Shown piece by piece: positions 863 through 63,106 of a DNA stretch of 64,000 bases. Origin of the DNA: a virus. Its lineage: Duplodnaviria > Caudoviricetes. Numbering within the stretch: the stretch's first letter is position 1; the number at the start of each line of letters is the position of its first letter. Below the pieces are notes generated by a model that searched no databases, was not told where the DNA came from, and worked only from the letters and a program-made list of their open reading frames with translations. Position numbers and translations under genes: made by a program. The stretch lies in the IMG/VR virus record IMGVR_UViG_3300032007_000001; one strand, given 5' to 3'.

Positions 863-1277
863 TCATAGACATTGATTGTATTTGTCGTTCATCCATGTTT
901 TTTAATGATTCATATAATTTCAAATAAGATTTTCCTTCTATAAAGTTTTTTAATGTTTTGACTTCTTCATATGAATATTTATCGCAAACTGAAATAAAAT
1001 TTTTTAAGTCTTTATTGAAGTATTTCATAGATTCATATTGGTCTGGTCTAAAATATGTAGCAGTTGCCAATAAATTATATGTAAAATTGTATTTATTTTT
1101 CTTAAATTCCATTATGACATATATCATAAATCCAATATCTTGATTATTAATTTCAAAACTTAATTCTTTTGTTTTTACATTATAGAACATATCACATTCA
1201 AAATATTTTGGCAAATCAAAAAAGTGTTTTGAATTCAAGATATATAGCAGATTCTTTTGTCTTATGTAATTTATCAT
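846..1277 (-). CDS. Hypothetical protein, C-terminal G-Phi family (ends MGL)
   Basis: ORF with AAGGA RBS. Confidence 0.65.
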   Translation of the reverse strand: MINYIRQKNLLYILNSKHFFDLPKYFECDMFYNVKTKELSFEINNQDIGFMIYVIMEFKKNKYNFTYNLLATATYFRPDQYESMKYFNKDLKNFISVCDKYSYEEVKTLKNFIEGKSYLKLYESLKNMDERQIQSMSMIDMGL

Positions 1278-1342
1278 AGTCTTGTCCTTATTTTTAATTT
1301 AGTAGTTATTTAATTATATAAAAATCATTAGGAAGTGTACAT

Positions 1343-1831
1343 ATGAATATTGTAAAAAATCGTTTAATGAAATTAGCTTCTATAGAAGAAGTAGAAAAAT
1401 ACATGAGTGACAATGGCTATACAAAAGAGGGTCAACATTATAAACAAGAATTTAAGGGATTAGTTGCCACTCCATATGTATCTGAAGTAACAGAGGCATT
1501 AAAAACGAATGATGTAAAATTTACTATGCAAGTAGACATTCAAAATGCTGGTGAACCAAATGAAGAAATTGATGATTTGAATAAAAGTGTAATCATGCAT
1601 GTTACTCATTTGATTGATGCAAGAGTTAATAAGATACATTATTCTATGGCTATAGAAGATACTTTTAACAACATAAAAGATGCTGTAGAAGAAATTAAAA
1701 AAATCACTAAAAATACTATTGACATCAATTACGCAAAAGATGATATTATTAAGTATATGAAGCAAAAGAAAATGTTAAAAGAAGAAACAATAGATAATTG
1801 CGTCAATGATAATTTCTATGCTTATATATGA
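1343..1831 (+). CDS. Hypothetical protein with MNIVKNRLMKLA leader
   Basis: ORF, RBS, followed by terminator. Confidence 0.7.
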   Translation: MNIVKNRLMKLASIEEVEKYMSDNGYTKEGQHYKQEFKGLVATPYVSEVTEALKTNDVKFTMQVDIQNAGEPNEEIDDLNKSVIMHVTHLIDARVNKIHYSMAIEDTFNNIKDAVEEIKKITKNTIDINYAKDDIIKYMKQKKMLKEETIDNCVNDNFYAYI

Positions 1832-1833
1832 TT

Positions 1834-1860
1834 AAAAGAGACCATATTGGTCTCTTTTTT
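1834..1860. terminator. Bidirectional intrinsic terminator
   Basis: AAAAGAGACC-ATATT-GGTCTCTTTTTT between convergent genes. Confidence 0.75.
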
Positions 1861-1944
1861 ATTTCTTCATTTCCACTATCATTATTTTTTTCATCATCAA
1901 AATGAAATAAAAAAATGATAGTAAATGAATACTATCACCATTTT

Positions 1945-2340
1945 TTATAATCCGTGTGTTGTTTTTAATATTTTTTTTGTTTGCTCTAAATTTAGATTAT
2001 CAAATATTTCATACCAATGATTGAAATCAATTGCATTAAATATTTCATCAAACAAATCATCATGTGAAAATATTTTTTTTGAATCTATAGGTATATGAAA
2101 AACTCTGCATTTTCTAGTATATCCTTCATTGTAACTATACGTTATTAAAAAATATTTATATTTTTTTGTTATCATTATTTCTTTATGGTCATTATTTAAT
2201 GAACGTATAACACAATCTGTTTTGTTTGAATAAAAATCTCTCCGTATGTAAAAATAAAAGTTTTTTACTAAAAAATCAGAATTTCTTGTTTGTTTTAAGA
2301 AACACAGATTTTGTCGTATAACGATAAAATTATTTGACAT
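1945..2340 (-). CDS. Hypothetical protein, G-Phi family (ends HGL)
   Basis: ORF directly after the PurA-like gene. Confidence 0.6.
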   Translation of the reverse strand: MSNNFIVIRQNLCFLKQTRNSDFLVKNFYFYIRRDFYSNKTDCVIRSLNNDHKEIMITKKYKYFLITYSYNEGYTRKCRVFHIPIDSKKIFSHDDLFDEIFNAIDFNHWYEIFDNLNLEQTKKILKTTHGL

Positions 2341-2343
2341 AAT

Positions 2344-3528
2344 TTATAGTTCCTTGCTAAGAATATCTAATGGATAAATTATTTTTTTATCTTCTATAAA
2401 ATCACTTTGCATTTCTTTTAAGTTAATGATTTGGTCATCGGGGATTTGCCAGTTGCCAGTCATTTTTTTATTTGTCGTATCCCACCAAGACACAAAGTAC
2501 ATTGGCTTATCTACATTAATATCGTTTTCAATATATTTCTTAAAGTCATTTTCTGTTCTTTCTTTTAATTTATCATCCATAATACTGCAACGAATACTTC
2601 CTTGCCAATCGTTGTTTATATTCGTTGTATCAAATCTTTTTACTATCTCCATGGCTTTTTCATTGAAAGTAGCATTAAATGGGCCGGCGCCATGTTTCGT
2701 CAAATATGTTCTTGTACAATACACAGGAATAGTCTTTTCTTTTTCAAGACCATTTCTTAAAATAATATTGATTGGATTAGTAGAGTCAGTTTTTGAAGGT
2801 GTAGTATGTGGATAGGATTCTTCGTTATCTTCATCAAGCAATAATCCCTGTGCATTTTCAAAAATAAAATTATCATAATCCTTAAATAAAGATTTTTCTT
2901 CTTTTATAAGATACACTTTAGGATTATTCAACGATTTATCCAATTCTTCATAAAAGTCATCCATAGCCAAAGCCAAATTTATATCTTTGAATTGTTCAGG
3001 TATTCTTCTATTTATTTCTATCATTGCTTGTTCAAACCCATAAAAGTGTTGAATCAAACTTTTCGTAAATTCTCTTCTTTGCGAAAATGACATTTTTTGC
3101 AGTGTTCCAATACTCATAGGAAGTCTTTGACTTCTTATTTTTGTCGCAAAAATGCCCATGCCGCAAGACCCATGTCTATCTTTTGAACGTATCGTTTCAA
3201 TAAGATGATTCATAAGAATGTCTATTGGTGTAGTGATTCTACATTTTTCATTAATAAAAACGTCTGGAGAATAAGTCTTTGATTTTTTTTCGTATTCATC
3301 ATTAAAAGAGAAAGGATTGAAAATGAATGTATTTGCTAAATACGTAGGAATTGGAGCAGAACACAACGAATGATGTATAAATCCATAACTCGTATGTCCA
3401 GCTTGACAACCGCCATTGTGTTTAATTCCAAGGACGTAGTGGGCTGCAAGATTGTCTTTTATATATCTAACTGCGCGCCCTTTTCCTTCATCACCGTAGT
3501 TACTTCCAATCACTATGTAATTGCTCAT
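2344..3528 (-). CDS. Adenylosuccinate synthetase-like protein (divergent PurA family)
   Basis: GSNYGDEGKG P-loop, GGCQAGHT, FENAQGLLLD, YPHTTPS, YLTKHGAGPF. Confidence 0.85.
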   Translation of the reverse strand: MSNYIVIGSNYGDEGKGRAVRYIKDNLAAHYVLGIKHNGGCQAGHTSYGFIHHSLCSAPIPTYLANTFIFNPFSFNDEYEKKSKTYSPDVFINEKCRITTPIDILMNHLIETIRSKDRHGSCGMGIFATKIRSQRLPMSIGTLQKMSFSQRREFTKSLIQHFYGFEQAMIEINRRIPEQFKDINLALAMDDFYEELDKSLNNPKVYLIKEEKSLFKDYDNFIFENAQGLLLDEDNEESYPHTTPSKTDSTNPINIILRNGLEKEKTIPVYCTRTYLTKHGAGPFNATFNEKAMEIVKRFDTTNINNDWQGSIRCSIMDDKLKERTENDFKKYIENDINVDKPMYFVSWWDTTNKKMTGNWQIPDDQIINLKEMQSDFIEDKKIIYPLDILSKEL

Positions 3529-3546
3529 TTTCAATCCTTCTTCCAA

Positions 3547-4473
3547 TTAGAATTCTACTAATTCATCATTTTTTTGATTGACATTTGCAATTGATTCTTC
3601 ATTATTTGCTAAATCTTTTACAGTCTTAAGAACAGTTAATGCTGTTGACTTATCATATTTTTCGAGAATATCATCCAATTTTTTGCCCATTTTCAATTCA
3701 AGCGTCGTTTCAATGACTTGCGGAATACGTTTGATATCTGAAATGAACATTGCTCTCTCACCAATTTTTTCCTGCCACGACCTAAGTGATTCTTTTCCCC
3801 AATGTCCATCTGCTACTATATGATAGATATCATAACTTTTTGATACTTCATTGAAGATATCATTAAAGATAATGTCATGGTTTACATCATCTCCAAAAAT
3901 GGCCTTAATATGACGTTGCGGTATGACATCCAAACATGGTTCATCGCCGATAGTATAAATGACGCCTTTTTGATTACGCTTATTCATGCAATCAATGTTT
4001 GTATGCCGTGCAGCAAAATAGTATAACAACAGATAACTTTCTCCATCATTTCCGCCGCCACCACCTTCAAACCAAATTTTATTCAAGCTTTCAGCAATGC
4101 GTATATCACTTTCAAATTGAGAAACCTGAAGCGGTGCAGAATCATAATAAGAATCTCCAATAGCTGCAATCATGATTTGTGGGTCCACAAGAGATTTATT
4201 ATTGTAAATTTCAGTGATAAGAGTATTGAGTGATTCTTTTGCTATTTCTTCAGCAAGATGTCCCATTGACCCAGTTACATCTAATCCAAGAATAATAGCA
4301 TTTGAATTTGGATGTTCATCGCTGTCAAGACTATCTCTCATCTTTACTCCAAGTGGGTCCATTGATTTGTCTAAAGAAGACGAATAAATTTCATCAACTG
4401 TAGACGTACTACTAATACCTCTCGAAGACTTGTAGCTATCCCAAGAACTACTTGACCAAGAACCATAACCCAT
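3547..4473 (-). CDS. vWA-domain protein
   Basis: MIDAS LDVTGSMG, AIGD, GGGGNDGESY, TIGDE. Confidence 0.8.
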   Translation of the reverse strand: MGYGSWSSSSWDSYKSSRGISSTSTVDEIYSSSLDKSMDPLGVKMRDSLDSDEHPNSNAIILGLDVTGSMGHLAEEIAKESLNTLITEIYNNKSLVDPQIMIAAIGDSYYDSAPLQVSQFESDIRIAESLNKIWFEGGGGGNDGESYLLLYYFAARHTNIDCMNKRNQKGVIYTIGDEPCLDVIPQRHIKAIFGDDVNHDIIFNDIFNEVSKSYDIYHIVADGHWGKESLRSWQEKIGERAMFISDIKRIPQVIETTLELKMGKKLDDILEKYDKSTALTVLKTVKDLANNEESIANVNQKNDELVEF

Positions 4474-4519
4474 AATAAAATCTCCTTTCTTTTATAAAAA
4501 GAAGCAATAATGCTTCAAG

Positions 4520-4885
4520 TTACCAAGTATTGCTTATGGTTTGAATTTCATTGCTTTTTGGAACGTAATTCTTTTTTGCTTCATTTTCTACTTCATCTAA
4601 ATCTATAAACAAAGCATTATTAAGATTTTTAATGTTTCTTATTGATTCATTAATATTATTTACAATAGTTAAAAATACAATATCTCTAAATTCTTTGTCT
4701 TTATAGCTTACTGATATTATATATCCATCTTCCAGGTTTTCTTTTTCTGTTAGTTTATTATAAAAATCAATGTAGCTAAGGTCTGAAAGCAATCCATCTC
4801 TTGTACCATTACGTTTTAAGAACATAAAATTATTTGTAGCATTTATGTAAATACCTCTATTTTTTGATTGAAGACCAATATCCAT
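4520..4885 (-). CDS. Hypothetical protein
   Basis: ORF with GGAGG RBS. Confidence 0.6.
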   Translation of the reverse strand: MDIGLQSKNRGIYINATNNFMFLKRNGTRDGLLSDLSYIDFYNKLTEKENLEDGYIISVSYKDKEFRDIVFLTIVNNINESIRNIKNLNNALFIDLDEVENEAKKNYVPKSNEIQTISNTW

Positions 4886-4897
4886 TGTTTTTCCTCC

Positions 4898-5923
4898 TTA
4901 ATCAATGTATGGGTCAACATCATCAATTTTAATGAATTCTCTATTTGGAAAGGTCTTGTCTCTTACTTTTTCCCATTCTTTTAATTCATCCAATAAATCC
5001 ATTTCAACTTCATTTGCTAACATGCCATAGTTTGATGAACCAGTTTTTGTTTGTGTATGCAATAAAAATTCTGTCATATCATATCCGCATATTTTATTCA
5101 ATTGATTAAAAGTGTTTGCTTGCAAAAGATTTCTAATAATAGCTTTTGAACATTCTACATCTGTTAAATAATTTGAAATCTTTTCGTCTTTTATCAATGG
5201 AGGAAGTAGGTTGAAAATTTCTTTTGACGTTCCAATCATTTTTTCTCCAGCTTCAGTACCAAATTGCCAACCTCCATATAAGCATACTCCATGTTTTGCT
5301 AAATTGACATAACAATTATTAATGCATATTCCGTTATGTACAAATCTGCTCATCCAAAACAATACGCAAAGGTTAAGCAAACGCGTAAGTACCCAAGCGG
5401 CATGTTCTTTTTGTTTGAAAATTTCTTTCACTAACATTAATGGATATTCGTCAACTTCTTTTTCCAACACGATATAAAAAATATTGTCAGCCGATTCAAA
5501 ATTGTCTATGATTTTAGGAATGAATTTTTCAAAATATTCTTTTTGACGATTGTCTTTGAAGTCAATATTATTTACAGAATTGATGTAATTATCATAATAT
5601 TTTTTTTGATTAAAAGAGAAAACAATAATTTTATCTCCAGCATAAGCATTTCCGACTTCAGTAGAATACGAATAACGATATTTTAACTGCATTTTTTTGT
5701 TTAACTTGTTTATGATAATAGAATGTTTGCTTTCTCCCCAAGAATTATTTTCAAAATGTTGTTTTGCTTCTTGATAGAACATATTCAACTTAAACATCAA
5801 TTGTTCTGCTTCTTCAGAATGATTGACATCCGGATGATATTCTTTTGCTAAATTCAAATATTCTTTCTTGAAATTCTCTTTTGAAAATATATCGCTATAT
5901 ATCTTAGCTTTTTCAAGATTCAT
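4898..5923 (-). CDS. J-domain (HPD) plus degenerate protein-kinase-like protein
   Basis: EYLNLAKEYHPDVN; VHNGICINN in place of the catalytic-loop HxD. Start moved to MNLEK after AAAGGAG and the promoter. Confidence 0.65.
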   Translation of the reverse strand: MNLEKAKIYSDIFSKENFKKEYLNLAKEYHPDVNHSEEAEQLMFKLNMFYQEAKQHFENNSWGESKHSIIINKLNKKMQLKYRYSYSTEVGNAYAGDKIIVFSFNQKKYYDNYINSVNNIDFKDNRQKEYFEKFIPKIIDNFESADNIFYIVLEKEVDEYPLMLVKEIFKQKEHAAWVLTRLLNLCVLFWMSRFVHNGICINNCYVNLAKHGVCLYGGWQFGTEAGEKMIGTSKEIFNLLPPLIKDEKISNYLTDVECSKAIIRNLLQANTFNQLNKICGYDMTEFLLHTQTKTGSSNYGMLANEVEMDLLDELKEWEKVRDKTFPNREFIKIDDVDPYID

Positions 5924-24627: not shown

Positions 24628-25899
24628 TCACTCCTCATCAATGTTTTTTATGCCAAATGAATTAAAAAATGATATGTAGTTGTTTGTGCCGATTATTTCT
24701 GACAATTTCATATATTGCGGTGATTGAGTATTTTCGTATTTTTTCAATATATGAAAAGATTGACCATTGAATTTGCTAAACATAAAACGTTTCAATTCAT
24801 TTGGTACACTTTTATTGACTGCAATTGCGAACGTTTTTCTATCATTTTTAGGCATTTTTTCATACCATTCGTCAATCGCTTTTTGTGTATCGCGAACATA
24901 CTTATACACAATGTCAGCAACCTTTCTAATATTTTCTCTATATGCTTCTGGTACTTTTGATATAATATCATCAAAATAATCGTCTGCTATGGACTTCATT
25001 ATAATATTTGGTGCTGACACGAAAGAGAGAATTCTATGAACTTCTCTATATTCGTTGCATTTCATCTTATACATATTGCCGTCTACATATAATACCCAAC
25101 CTTCTTTTTCTTCGGCGTGGTAATTATCAATTGAATTTATGACTTCGTTAAACGTTCTATTTTCAACTTCTGTATGAGGAACGTTATATTTGTTTGCATA
25201 TTCAACCATTTCATTATATGTAAATTGTCTTCCAGTATATACATCTCTAATACCAATCAAACAAAGTTTTGTTTCGTTGTACTTAACAACTATTAAATTA
25301 TTTGGAGATATATATTCGAAAATGAAAGTTAGATTTGGATTTTCTTTTACCATATTTTGGTGATTAACGCTAGAATTAAAGATATCCAATCCGTCTTTTA
25401 GTTGTTGACTTTCTTTTGGGTCAATGGCTGAAGAACCAGTATAAAAAAATTGATTATTATACCAACGAGCTTGTTGCATGGACCCATCCAATTTATTTGA
25501 TATTTCAACCGTTTTTGCACATTTAATGTTATTGATTACATTTTCCATGCTCGTTTCTGGAATTTCATTTACATTAAAAAACTTTTTAAATGGACACAAT
25601 ACAATATTTTCGTTCTTTATATCAATAACCAAACTACGTAATTCACGATAAATGGAATTCGGATTTTCATATAAATCCGGTTGTTCTTTTCCGATAAGCG
25701 AATATTTAATTAAAGCAATGGAAGGAAACATTTCGTCATTTTGCGTAATCTTAACGCAATTGACAAAATGATTATATTCATCTTTATTCAATTGATGAAT
25801 CATATTCTTAAGATTATAAATTTCTTTTTCACCGAATGTATTGATATAATCTTTTTTTATTTTCATTATGAAATTGAATCCAATATTCCATTCAAACAC
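24628..25899 (-). CDS. RNA ligase, T4 Rnl1-like
   Basis: KFFNVNE, KLDGS (motif I), FEYISPNNLIVVKY, EGWV, KMK; GTG start after GAGGTG. Confidence 0.85.
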   Translation of the reverse strand: MFEWNIGFNFIMKIKKDYINTFGEKEIYNLKNMIHQLNKDEYNHFVNCVKITQNDEMFPSIALIKYSLIGKEQPDLYENPNSIYRELRSLVIDIKNENIVLCPFKKFFNVNEIPETSMENVINNIKCAKTVEISNKLDGSMQQARWYNNQFFYTGSSAIDPKESQQLKDGLDIFNSSVNHQNMVKENPNLTFIFEYISPNNLIVVKYNETKLCLIGIRDVYTGRQFTYNEMVEYANKYNVPHTEVENRTFNEVINSIDNYHAEEKEGWVLYVDGNMYKMKCNEYREVHRILSFVSAPNIIMKSIADDYFDDIISKVPEAYRENIRKVADIVYKYVRDTQKAIDEWYEKMPKNDRKTFAIAVNKSVPNELKRFMFSKFNGQSFHILKKYENTQSPQYMKLSEIIGTNNYISFFNSFGIKNIDEE

Positions 25900-25917
25900 G
25901 TTTTTCACCTCAATGTA

Positions 25918-25946
25918 ATTATACCACAAATGAAATCATGTGTAAA
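25918..25946 (-). promoter_or_regulatory. Sigma-A-like promoter TTTACA-17-TATAAT (extended TG)
   Basis: Consensus match upstream of the ligase. Confidence 0.65.
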
Positions 25947-60815: not shown

Positions 60816-61179
60816 TGGTGGAGATGAGGAGAATCGAACTCCTGTCCGAAACAAGACTTCAAATGGGTCATTACCGCTGCTAGCTGGCTTATCGCACCAG
60901 TATACGTATAAAAGAAAGGGGGATTTGATGAAAATGGTTTTCTTAATTCTTAAGAAAAGTCCAAAGAAATAGTGGGAATTATCTGAAACCCAGTAGCGGC
61001 TTCTCCACAGTCTTACTGGGGGCTGGTAAAGCGTGGCAGACTTACGCCGGCATTACCTTACGCAGCGATGGCAACATAATCGTTGTCAGTTATTTTTTTG
61101 AAACGTTTTTTAGGATTCAGTTTCTTCATCCCGCGGAACCTCAAATGATTTCTCATCCCGTCGAAACCATTGCATCCCC
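60816..61179 (-). ncRNA. ssrA: tmRNA; tag (A)DNDYVAIAA
   Basis: 5' GGGGATGCAATGGTTTCGAC; 3' GGACAGGAGTTCGATTCTCCTCATCTCCACCA; tag ORF 61058-61087 after AATAACT. Confidence 0.95.
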
Positions 61180-61434: not shown

Positions 61435-62409
61435 TTATACAATTTTTGAAGCACAAAGACCATCACACGTTTCTGTAAAATTAGAACATTTATAACACGG
61501 TGTTTTTTGAAAATTATTTTGCATATATTGATTATATCTTTCTTTTAATACTTTTATAAGAATTTTTGGATTTCTAAAATCGAAAACATTATCTACTTTA
61601 ATAAATTTTGAAGATGAACACCAAACAACAGAATTATCAACTAAAATATCGAGAGGCGGTACTTTCTTATAACAGCATATGGTACTAAACTTAATTTTAT
61701 TTTTATATTTTGTGGTAAATAATTTAATGGTTTCTTGTTTTACTTCGCATTCATTGATTGAACAATCAAACCCAAATGTTGTTTCTGGATAAACATCTAA
61801 TATTTTTTCCATAAAATATACAACATCATTGCCGCTATCGTGCTTAAAATCATATTTAATCTTAAAATTTGGAGTCATCGGAGCAACCCTTACATTAATA
61901 TATTCTCTATTTAAGATTCTTATTGTATTTAATATTCTATCTATAGATTTATCTATATCATCCTTATTTGGAAGCAATGTTGTTCCTATACTCATATAAA
62001 AATTATTTGGAATGCGACTCACATTTTCTTCAAATTGTTTTTTTTGTGAATCGTTATAATCACAATTAATTAACATTCCGCTAATGATGCTTAAATTTTT
62101 TAAGAAAATATCTATTTTATCTGATGAAACATTAAAATTTGTAAGAAACCCAATTGATTTATTATTTTCATTAAATACATCAAATAATCCTTGTAAATCA
62201 GAATACAAAAGCGGTTCTCCACCAAAAACTTTTATATTTTTCATTTTTGGAGCCCATTTAAGTATTTTGTCTATATTTTCTAGAGTCATTTCTCGTTTAG
62301 GTATCTTATCATTTGACAAATACCATTCTTTTTGAAAACAGAATTCACATCTTCTATTGCATTCATTTGTAATTGATATATTCATTATTTCACTTCTTTC
62401 TTTTTTCAA
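61435..62409 (-). CDS. Radical SAM/SPASM-like protein (likely start 62385)
   Basis: CNRRCEFC, FGGEPLL, C-terminal CYKC...CDGLC. Confidence 0.88.
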   Translation of the reverse strand: MKKERSEIMNISITNECNRRCEFCFQKEWYLSNDKIPKREMTLENIDKILKWAPKMKNIKVFGGEPLLYSDLQGLFDVFNENNKSIGFLTNFNVSSDKIDIFLKNLSIISGMLINCDYNDSQKKQFEENVSRIPNNFYMSIGTTLLPNKDDIDKSIDRILNTIRILNREYINVRVAPMTPNFKIKYDFKHDSGNDVVYFMEKILDVYPETTFGFDCSINECEVKQETIKLFTTKYKNKIKFSTICCYKKVPPLDILVDNSVVWCSSSKFIKVDNVFDFRNPKILIKVLKERYNQYMQNNFQKTPCYKCSNFTETCDGLCASKIV

Positions 62410-62595
62410 TTTATCTTATTCAAAGTGTACTTTTATTTTAATTTATGATAGAATAATCATGCTAAAAGAATTTTTCCAAGATTAATTGGATGGGATTAAT
62501 TTCTCATCCAATTTTTCTTTTTATAAAGGAAAAGAGATGAGTAGTGTGGGTTACTCATCTCTTTTCTATATATAGAGGAGGTATAGTGATGTCAA

Positions 62596-63068
62596 TGGTA
62601 CACATGAATGGAGTTGAACCATTGTCACTGGTTTATCGTACCACACATGGTTATGATTTCCCATGCCGTTTATTATGCCCATCCTTGGACGAAACGTTGT
62701 GGTCTGGAACATGTCTTCACCATATTTTTCAATTGCAATAATAAGCAAGCCTATCATTACACAAAAAACTTAGGTGGCTGGTATATGTTCTCTACACATT
62801 TACCAAAATCTTACTAAAATTGCAGATGTTATATATGCCATTAAAATACGTTGTAGTATCTTTTTGCATATCATCTATGGTGCAAATTAGTATTTGGATT
62901 TAGCACGGCATACCCTAACTCTCTGCCGATTTAGCCAGCATTCACTTAAACCGTTTCCAATCTAAGTGCTCCCGTTCTCACGGATAAGACATCGTAACCA
63001 TAGTAGGATTACTAGACTTATATTAGGAAATTTTAAGACCAGCGCACTCACCGTTGTGCTACATGTGC
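62596..63068 (-). tRNA. Intron-split tRNA-Ile(UAU); exons 63068-63035 and 62636-62596
   Basis: Joined exons give a complete 75-nt cloverleaf: GCACATG/CATGTGT acceptor, GCAC/GTGC D-stem, CTGGT CT-TAT-AA ACCAG, AATGG TTCAACT CCATT, ACCA. Confidence 0.8.
62637..63034 (-). mobile_element. Group I intron (398 nt, no homing endonuclease ORF)
   Basis: Follows exon U, ends in G; GCTGG/CCAGC (P3-like), GAACAT/ATGTTC (P7-like), GTGTAGAGAAC and AAGACATGTTCC (R/S-like). Confidence 0.75.
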
Positions 63069-63106
63069 GTTACAAATTATAATAAACAGAAAAATGGTTT
63101 TTGTTT

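Follow-up and report, generated by a model that had tools for sequence, protein, structure and literature searches.

A split tRNA gene near the end of a phage genome fragment

Is the tRNA that reads AUA codons in a giant phage encoded by a gene that has to be spliced? This question is raised by positions 62596..63068 of the viral record IMGVR_UViG_3300032007_000001 (IMG/VR; Caudoviricetes), a stretch of 64,000 nucleotides (nt) that we refer to as the window. An initial annotation had proposed a cryptic tRNA-Ile gene with the rare anticodon UAU at this locus, interrupted between U34 and A35 by a group I intron. Our analysis confirmed that the locus is a real intron-split tRNA-Ile(UAU) gene. We estimate a probability of about 0.85 for the full reading, that is, one tRNA-Ile(UAU) gene split between U34 and A35 by a 398-nt group I intron of subgroup IC3 that contains no open reading frame (ORF).

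With introns allowed, ARAGORN called a single minus-strand gene at 62596..63068, a tRNA-Ile(tat) of 75 nt with a 398-nt intron at position 34/35 and the junction string gtctt-intron-ataaa, in the very place where it had been predicted. Default ARAGORN and the Rfam tRNA model, which report 12 tRNAs and one transfer-messenger RNA (tmRNA) in the window, called no gene at 62596..63068. The Rfam group I model (Intron_gpI) was silent as well, and the expectation that standard scans miss this gene was justified.

The 5' exon called by ARAGORN (63035..63068; minus strand, like all features of the gene described below) comprises the 5' strand of the acceptor stem, the D arm, the 5' strand of the anticodon stem and C32, U33 and U34. 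It is followed by the ORF-less intron (62637..63034), which starts with AAAAU and ends with GGUACG. The 3' exon (62596..62636) begins with A35, U36, A37 and A38, continues with the 3' strand of the anticodon stem, the variable loop and the T arm, and closes with the 3' strand of the acceptor stem, A73 and an encoded CCA. The two halves form the full cloverleaf that had been claimed for them, and this cloverleaf is the minimum-energy structure of the ligated exons. The T-loop (UUCAACU), the G53-C61 pair, U8 and A73 are canonical. Because its variable loop has 4 nt, the split tRNA is not a leucine tRNA.

Eight splits of the anticodon loop are possible, of which three yield the anticodon UAA, two UAU and three GAU. 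The split after U34 (CUU|AAAAU...GGUACG|AUAA) is the sole one that combines a U at position -1 with a G as the final base of the intron. It restores a 7-nt anticodon loop, CUUAUAA, with the anticodon UAU, as originally proposed; the neighbouring split likewise yields UAU. An ordinary Ile-GAU junction is disfavoured by the sequence, because the intron would then end in C instead of G. The placement of the junction was set by homology with more than 50 introns of the tRNA-Leu(UAA) class (Leu.3Ug) and of tRNA-Ile genes.

The insert resembles bacterial tRNA introns of subgroup IC3

The RNA of the insert is structured (z = -4.7 relative to shuffled sequences) and carries two GNRA-capped hairpins. 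By eye, one stretch of it looked like the tRNA introns of Azoarcus and Anabaena, and we turned this likeness into a test. The motif TAGAGA-N(8-18)-CCTAAG-N(4-34)-TATGGTGAAG, which derives from the insert, was searched for in bacteria, with one genome for each species, and matched at least 120 loci, compared to about 23 expected by chance according to our own estimate. Among the matches listed, 111 of 120 are intron-split tRNA genes according to ARAGORN; their intron boundaries were refined by the rule of U at -1 and a terminal G. The matches belong to classes that were already known, with the junctions CUU|AAAA of Leu-UAA (40), CUC|AAAA of Leu-CAA (16), CAU|AAUC of a CAU anticodon (17) and, for the remainder, various junctions in Thr, Arg, Asp and other tRNA genes.

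We aligned 30 representative bacterial tRNA introns from these loci and built two covariance models. The first (R1) covers the guide, P2, the 5' strand of P3, J3/4, P4, P5 and P6, is based on the 30 introns and has no base in common with the search motif. The second (R2) covers P7, the 3' strand of P3, P8, J8/7, the 3' strand of P7 and P9. On both strands of the window, R1 has a single match (62872..62978, minus strand; 26.8 bits, E ~1e-4), and R2 likewise matches once (62661..62797, minus strand; 58 bits, E ~1e-13). Both matches are located within the insert and in the right order. Furthermore, the insert keeps 49/49 invariant columns of the 30-sequence alignment, 27 of them outside the search motif, while shuffled copies keep 19-34 of the 49. 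These comparisons clearly place the insert in the IC3 family of bacterial tRNA introns (Azoarcus/Anabaena type). The core elements of a group I intron that the initial annotation had named were thus recognised by the family-specific models, but not by the Rfam group I model.

This missing Rfam match is what would be expected if the insert were some other element that is taken out by proteins or never excised, for example an archaeal-type intron, a mobile insertion or an unclassified ribozyme. But family-specific models match both halves in order, all invariant positions are kept, a canonical P3/P7 pseudoknot and a terminal G are present, and the insert is homologous to more than 100 tRNA introns. 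We therefore regard such an origin as extremely improbable. The silence of the Rfam model is a limit of that model and not a defining biological feature; according to Williams (2020; bioRxiv 10.1101/2020.01.27.920355), too, a share of tRNA introns escapes it.

Structure of the intron

Intron positions are given below such that the window coordinate equals 63035 minus the intron position. All core helices pair without mismatch, and the core contains the P3-P8/P7 pseudoknot, P4-P6 and, next to a bulged base of P7, a G-C guanosine pocket. Intron nt 1-63 (62972..63034) form an insertion in the P1 loop with the helices 14-18/47-51, 23-28/36-41 and 52-55/60-63, the last of which has a GAGA loop. Canonical members of the family lack this insertion. 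Relatives from Clostridia and Tenericutes have shorter ones of their own, as has the related locus L123, a viral contig described below. The assigned guide (62969..62971) lies directly 5' of P2 (62943..62968; intron 67-77/82-92), an 11-bp helix with a GAAA tetraloop that covaries in the family. The 5' strand of P3, GCUGG (62935..62939; intron 96-100), pairs with its 3' strand, CCAGC (62777..62781; intron 254-258), and is followed by J3/4, CUAAAU (62929..62934). P4 and P5 occupy 62906..62928: P4 (CGGCA/UGCCG, intron 107-111/125-129), which covaries in the family, surrounds a reduced P5 of 13 nt without a tetraloop receptor. P6 and its long, irregular extension of about 109 nt (62796..62904; intron 131-239) include a symmetric UAAAU/UAAAU internal loop.

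The 5' strand of P7 (62785..62792) consists of G243, the bulged A244 and G245-U250. The latter stretch pairs with A323-C329, the 3' strand AUGUUCC (62706..62712), which is preceded by J8/7, AAGAC (62713..62717). G245-C328 is predicted to be the guanosine-binding pair; the P7 G-C pair is invariant in 32/32 family sequences, and P7 covaries. A segment, GUUCCAGACCACA, that we had first read as the 'R' element (5' strand of P7) was reassigned by the family comparison to the 3' strand of P7 and the start of P9. P8 (62718..62776; intron 259-317) has the base CACC/GGUG, the 11-nt receptor motif CCUAAG...UAUGG and a long distal hairpin. In the P9 domain (62640..62703), ACCACA/UGUGGU (332-337/390-395) closes two hairpins (339-368 and 370-389). 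After P9 the intron ends in ACG, with G398, the terminal guanosine (omega G, 62637), as its last base; this agrees with the conserved 3' end GUGGUA(A/C)G. The combination of a GNRA tetraloop (GAAA) in L2 and the 11-nt receptor CCUAAG/UAUGG in P8 is an IC3 feature. No plausible ORF was found within the intron, and no maturase or endonuclease ORF in or beside it.

The Azoarcus-type intron belongs to the same family and has the same core, L2 GAAA loop and P8 receptor; it was this shared motif that fetched the comparators. For Azoarcus olearius, P2 with a GAAA loop appears in the seed alignment of Williams (bioRxiv 10.1101/2020.01.27.920355). The two introns differ in their site and periphery: the Azoarcus intron has 205 nt, is inserted after position 36 of the CAU anticodon of a lysidine tRNA and has an L9-P5 contact, whereas the window intron is inserted at 34/35 of a UAU anticodon and has a reduced P5 and L9.

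The guide sequence

In 30/30 family members, the internal guide (GAG, GGG, GCA etc., depending on the exon) is located directly 5' of P2, and the three bases preceding it form P10 with the 3' exon. By this positional homology, in an invariant GAG/GGG column of the family, the guide of the window intron is probably G64-A65-G66. P1 would then consist of C32-G66, U33-A65 and a U34.G64 wobble at the splice site.

The bases before GAG are informative in the other introns of tRNA-Ile(UAU) genes (see below). They read UAU in 10/13 Ile(UAU) introns, compared to UUU or AUU in 29/35 Leu(UAA) introns, and the change from UUU to UAU is exactly the one needed to pair with A35-U36-A37 instead of A35-A36-A37. 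On this sequence comparison, the guide shift is independent evidence that the introns of this class splice to UAU.

There is a second candidate for the guide. The hexamer UAUAAG (63017..63022; intron 13-18) is a perfect complement of the ligated junction CUUAUA, so that P1 might be formed by this element and not by G64-A65-G66 while the core remains that of a group I intron. P1 and P10 would then have 6 bp with CUU|AUA, a Watson-Crick pair U34-A16 would replace the U.G wobble, and the later hairpins would be extra P2-like helices. The hexamer is conserved in L135, the closest relative of the locus, differs by one substitution from the UAUGAG of 10/13 other Ile(UAU) introns, and is paired with the exon in the minimum-energy fold. 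On the other hand, L123, which has the same tRNA and core, lacks the hexamer, and its GAG adjoins P2, where the guide of all 30 family members lies. A U-A pair at the cleavage site is not the family norm, and UAUAAG can pair instead with CUUAU at 47-51. We therefore consider a P1 formed by UAUAAG unlikely; G64-A65-G66 is favoured as the guide by its position and by the absence of the hexamer from L123. UAUAAG may serve as an alternative guide, be the relic of one, or form one side of a helix in the P1 loop. GAGA at intron 56-59 was ruled out as a guide, since L135 has AGAA there.

A further complementarity was noticed in this region. Intron nt 20-24 (CUAGU; 63011-63015) are complementary to G26-G30 of the tRNA (GCUGG; 63039-63043), a segment made up of position 26 and the anticodon stem on its 5' side. 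The window gene, L135 and L123 all preserve this complementarity. The alternative helix that it allows would be in competition with folding of the tRNA or formation of P1.

Relatives of the locus and covariation

Further members were sought with a second pattern, consisting of the conserved 3' strand of P7 and the P9 ends followed by an exon starting with ATAA. It detected 10 loci in IMG/VR and 33 in metagenomes. In viral and metagenome contigs, at least 13 different genes for tRNA-Ile(UAU) are split as CUU|...G|AUAA, and their introns match both R1 and R2; named members of this class are L123, L125, L127, L129, L130, L135, L136, L140, L141, L146, L159 and L164. Most of the other introns of the class have 196-301 nt, no P1-loop insertion and the guide UAU-GAG. 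The window intron, like those of L135 and L123, is atypical; it has a large insertion in the P1 loop. Intronless Ile(UAU) genes likewise occur in phage-like contigs. While the UAU anticodon may be rare in bacteria, as the initial annotation had stated, split Ile(UAU) genes are therefore recurrent in phage-like contigs.

Other searches were negative. We found no match for the locus among GenBank phages by blastn, and no syntenic locus by way of the neighbouring radical-SAM protein (relatives and exact look-up) or of exact 19-mers of the intron. The long-P8 version of the core motif detected nothing in IMG/VR. In a pattern search of 401 Bacillota genomes, this intron type was found only in L017, in a tRNA-Leu(UAA) gene, and no Ile(UAU) copy was found there.

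The closest relative, L135, is a 1-kb metagenome contig that is 90% identical to the window gene and has homologous upstream genes in a syntenic flank. Its 3' exon is identical to that of the window gene, and the D and anticodon arms are common to the window tRNA, L135 and L123. Where L135 differs from the window in core helices, pairing is generally preserved. Relative to the window, the P7 pair A246-U327 is changed to G.U in L135 and U346.G357 to C-G, the helix 145-154/211-221 pairs better, and in helix 23-28/36-41 a U-G is replaced by U-A and a C-G by U-G. P2 of L135 is an exception, since two apical pairs are lost or another register is needed. The distal P8 hairpin of the window is replaced by an unrelated hairpin in L135. 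In L123, an IMG/VR contig of 89.8 kb, the tRNA body is the same and the intron is compact, with 233 nt. L123 differs on both sides of pairs in P3 (C-G to U-A), P4 (two pairs), the base of P8, P9 and P9b, and its P6 is a short form with the same UAAAU/UAAAU internal loop. Taken together, the changes in L135 and L123 are compensatory or wobble-compatible in P3, P4, P7, P8, P9, P9a and P9b.

The family as a whole gave the same picture. In the covariation alignments, 94-95% of the cells are paired, and 14/18 and 18/21 pairs change on both sides. None of 500 shuffles (0/500), and no slid register, came near the observed pairing. Because the alignments were fitted to the R1 and R2 models, pairing is favoured in them; the margin over the controls is nevertheless very large.

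Some observations on the tRNAs of related loci deserve mention. The acceptor stem of L135 (18-484, minus strand), GCGCGUG/CAUGUGU, contains the wobble pairs G1.U72, G3.U70 and G5.U68. Since G3.U70 is the pair that classically confers alanine identity, this tRNA with its UAU anticodon might be charged with the wrong amino acid, or else be in decay. Five further loci (L142, L143, L152, L155 and L158) carry a CAU-anticodon tRNA split as CUC|...G|AUAA, with C and not U at -1; their introns have 933-976 nt, which leaves room for an ORF. The G1.U72 wobble (63068/62600) and the T arm GACAAUGGUUCAACUCCAUU of the window tRNA-Ile are common to two intronless phage tRNA-Ile genes with UAU and GAU anticodons (L001:641-714 and L002:1811-1885), which suggests a single phage tRNA-Ile lineage.

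Proposed splicing of the tRNA precursor

From this structure we propose the following pathway. The transcript would fold into the canonical core of P3-P8, P4-P6 and P7 with its G-C guanosine pocket, with the L2 GAAA tetraloop predicted to contact the 11-nt receptor of P8. Exogenous guanosine would attack after U34, held in a short P1 of CUU and G64-A65-G66 with the U.G wobble at the cleavage site. G398 would then occupy the pocket, and the exons would be joined to a 75-nt tRNA with the loop CUUAUAA and the encoded CCA, which would read AUA. The intron-split gene is very probably functional. We infer that this copy splices, that it needs no protein, that the host isoleucyl-tRNA synthetase (IleRS) charges the product and that the P1 nucleotides are as assigned.

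Several observations weigh against this picture. The homology-based P1 has only 3 bp, its loop carries the 63-nt insertion, and the P10-forming UAU of the other Ile(UAU) introns is not adjacent to the GAG of the window, which is preceded by ACGG. L9 is a 10-nt loop, GAAAUCAUAA, and not a GNRA tetraloop; because P5 is reduced in addition, the intron lacks one of the two tertiary contacts that are classic for IC3. The R1 score (26.8 bits) is modest, and the R2 score is partly built in, as 22 nt of this intron were used to collect its training set. Rfam Intron_gpI (RF00028) gave no match, neither at its gathering score nor at E<=10 on the 64 kb, on 1.1 kb or on 486 nt. Finally, the scan for an upstream promoter gave no sigma-70 match, and there is no consensus -35 element; by eye, a -10-like TATAAT is located at 63081..63076, 8 nt upstream of G1.

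If the intron were a decaying, splicing-dead remnant and the tRNA-Ile(UAU) gene a pseudogene, the short P1 with its loop insertion, the lack of an adjacent P10, the reduced P5 and L9 and the silence of Rfam would find an explanation, and so would the three G.U pairs in the acceptor stem of L135. Such decay is hard to reconcile with an intact set of 49/49 invariant core positions and core helices that all pair. Moreover, the divergence from L135 and L123 is mostly peripheral and keeps the helices, the exons are intact with an encoded CCA, and ATA is heavily used as a codon (see below). We thus judge a dead remnant to be very improbable. The reduced P5 occurs likewise in the Clostridia and Tenericutes relatives, and by this comparison the subgroup formed by the window and these introns departs from the IC3 type in P5.

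The same weaknesses bear on the question whether the intron can splice on its own. A weak P1 and P10 together with one lost tertiary contact could make folding dependent on a cofactor, and in the window, L135 and L123 alike, CUAGU (intron 20-24) might give rise to a competing fold by pairing with the anticodon stem on its 5' side. A protein or chaperone might then be needed for splicing or time it, and the intron would gate the supply of the AUA reader during infection. But no maturase or endonuclease ORF is present in or beside the intron, and the Azoarcus and Anabaena members of the family are established to self-splice. Dependence on such a factor is in our view quite improbable, and autonomous splicing of the group I intron with the P1 assigned above is preferred.

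Origin of the intron

The tRNA-Leu(UAA) IC3 intron of cyanobacteria, plastids and bacteria ('Leu.3Ug', bioRxiv 10.1101/2020.01.27.920355) is inserted at the same site after U34, with CUU at the end of the exon and GAG beside P2. The likeness extends to the GAAA loop of P2, J3/4, P4, P6, P7, J8/7, CCAGACCACAA after P7 and the 3' end GUGGUACG. The parallel with this intron that had been drawn in the initial annotation thus amounts to homology, within the same IC3 family and at the same site. There are also differences. The host gene is a class I tRNA-Ile(UAU) in the window, compared to a class II tRNA-Leu, and the 3' exon starts with AUAA instead of AAAA. The window intron has 398 nt due to expansions of L1, P6, P8 and P9, whereas Leu(UAA) introns have about 200-250 nt. 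Furthermore, it resides in a giant phage, the tRNA-Leu(UAA) introns in a cell or plastid.

Among the matches listed by blastn, the nearest relatives are L017 (Clostridia) and L064 (Tenericutes), two tRNA-Leu(UAA) introns that likewise interrupt their genes between U34 and A35. Like the window intron, both have a P1-loop insertion and a reduced P5. In the intron tree, the window, L135 and L123 group with the Leu(UAA) introns of a Clostridia metagenome-assembled genome (MAG) and a Tenericutes MAG and with an intron of Oscillospiraceae (Shimodaira-Hasegawa-like approximate likelihood ratio test, SH-aLRT, 97), and Ile(UAU) introns occur at no fewer than three places. This is a quick maximum-likelihood tree of 215 columns with uneven composition and hence weak.

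A tRNA-Leu(UAA) intron that moved to a tRNA-Ile(UAU) gene is the most likely origin suggested by these relationships. Such a transfer is likely, as a single base distinguishes the two anticodon loops (CUUAAAA and CUUAUAA). A 10.3-kb viral contig, L124 (IMGVR_UViG_3300031998_003058), carries 20 tRNA genes and four IC3 introns in the region 1175-5728; three of these introns are in tRNA-Leu(UAA), in a gene of the Ile(UAU) type and in a tRNA with the anticodon UCA, and there is a fourth besides. Its Ile(UAU) and Leu(UAA) introns are reciprocal best matches (78.5%) among 70 introns. This fits a repeated transfer between the two genes.

Comparison with known tRNA introns and AUA readers

In Mycoplasma mobile and in Bacillus subtilis tilS suppressors, tRNA-Ile(UAU) reads AUA with U34 and needs no lysidine. 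These genes are cellular and uninterrupted, while the phage gene is split. Introns in tRNA genes have been described for the Lak megaphages, very large phages of about 26% GC, as unclassifiable by Rfam (Devoto et al. 2019; PMC6784885). They were left without a group I assignment, and one of them resembles a tRNA itself; the window intron, in contrast, is assignable to IC3. By 2014, all known phage group I introns were in protein genes, despite the many phage tRNA genes (Hausner and colleagues, PMC3984707). For bacterial tRNAs, four classical and 17 further classes of group I introns are distinguished by Williams (2020; bioRxiv 10.1101/2020.01.27.920355). A search of the open-access literature, the scope of which excluded the class table of that work, did not find a group I intron in a tRNA-Ile(UAU) or phage tRNA gene. 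The intron described here adds a new member to the IC3 family; the literature searched describes neither this target gene nor this kind of host, a giant phage, for such introns.

Codon usage, charging and genomic context

Codon counts were based on 75 ORFs covering 77% of the window. ATA accounts for 690/1605 isoleucine codons (43%), or 41.9 per 1000, twice the rate of ATG; the initial remark that ATA is frequent in these genes was thus borne out. TTA makes up 51% of the leucine codons. No other tRNA-Ile is present within the 64-kb window, and most of the other tRNAs encoded there read A-ending codons through U34. The further suggestions of the initial annotation, that the tRNA bypasses the host TilS and that splicing gates its supply, are neither supported nor refuted by our data.

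Identity elements for the IleRS of Escherichia coli are A35, U36, A37, A38, A73, C4-G69, U12-A23 and C29-G41. The spliced tRNA has A35, U36, A37, A38, A73 and C4-G69, while pair 12-23 is A-U and pair 29-41 is G-C; the set is that of E. coli and may not be that of the host.

The window has a GC content of about 27% and is phage-like. Proteins encoded in it include a T4 Rnl1-type RNA ligase, an amidase/VgrG3-C lysin, an adenylosuccinate synthetase-like protein and a chemoreceptor. The RNA ligase is encoded at 24628-25929 (minus strand) and contains the Pfam domains RNA_lig_T4_1 and T4_Rnl1_C. In T4, Rnl1 mends breaks in anticodon loops. The ligase fits the large investment of this phage in tRNAs, with no link to the intron. 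The tmRNA (60816-61179, minus strand; 104.7 bits, tag peptide DNDYVAIAA) is located 1.4 kb downstream of the split tRNA, and a radical-SAM gene (61435-62409) lies between the two. Between the split tRNA and the radical-SAM gene, a strong 15-bp hairpin (62522..62566) may act as a terminator. Its weak, sub-threshold Rfam matches (RsaE and various miRNA models) probably reflect mere hairpin likeness.

Implications for phage tRNA genes

Conceivably, IC3 introns without an endonuclease gene are mobile in phage tRNA clusters. They would jump, probably by reverse splicing, between genes with near-identical anticodon loops (from Leu-UAA, CUUAAAA, to Ile-UAU, CUUAUAA), retune their guides from UUU-GAG to UAU-GAG and, in giant phages, be kept in the AUA reader for a benefit. 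We regard this view as tentative and unlikely. If it were true, the intron may time the supply of the tRNA, it may leave the anticodon loop unformed until needed and thereby safe from host anticodon nucleases, or it may control the fate of U34. For the last of these ideas there is a parallel in eukaryotic tRNA-Ile(UAU), for which intron-dependent modification is known.

The window locus and its at least 13 relatives indicate that a recognisable class of IC3 introns lives in phage tRNA-Ile(UAU) genes. The split gene escapes default ARAGORN as well as the tRNA and Intron_gpI models of Rfam. Inventories of tRNAs and analyses of codon supply therefore lack the AUA decoder of such phages. Together with the tRNA-Leu(UAA) introns, the class provides a natural case of a guide that co-evolves with a one-base change in its target site.

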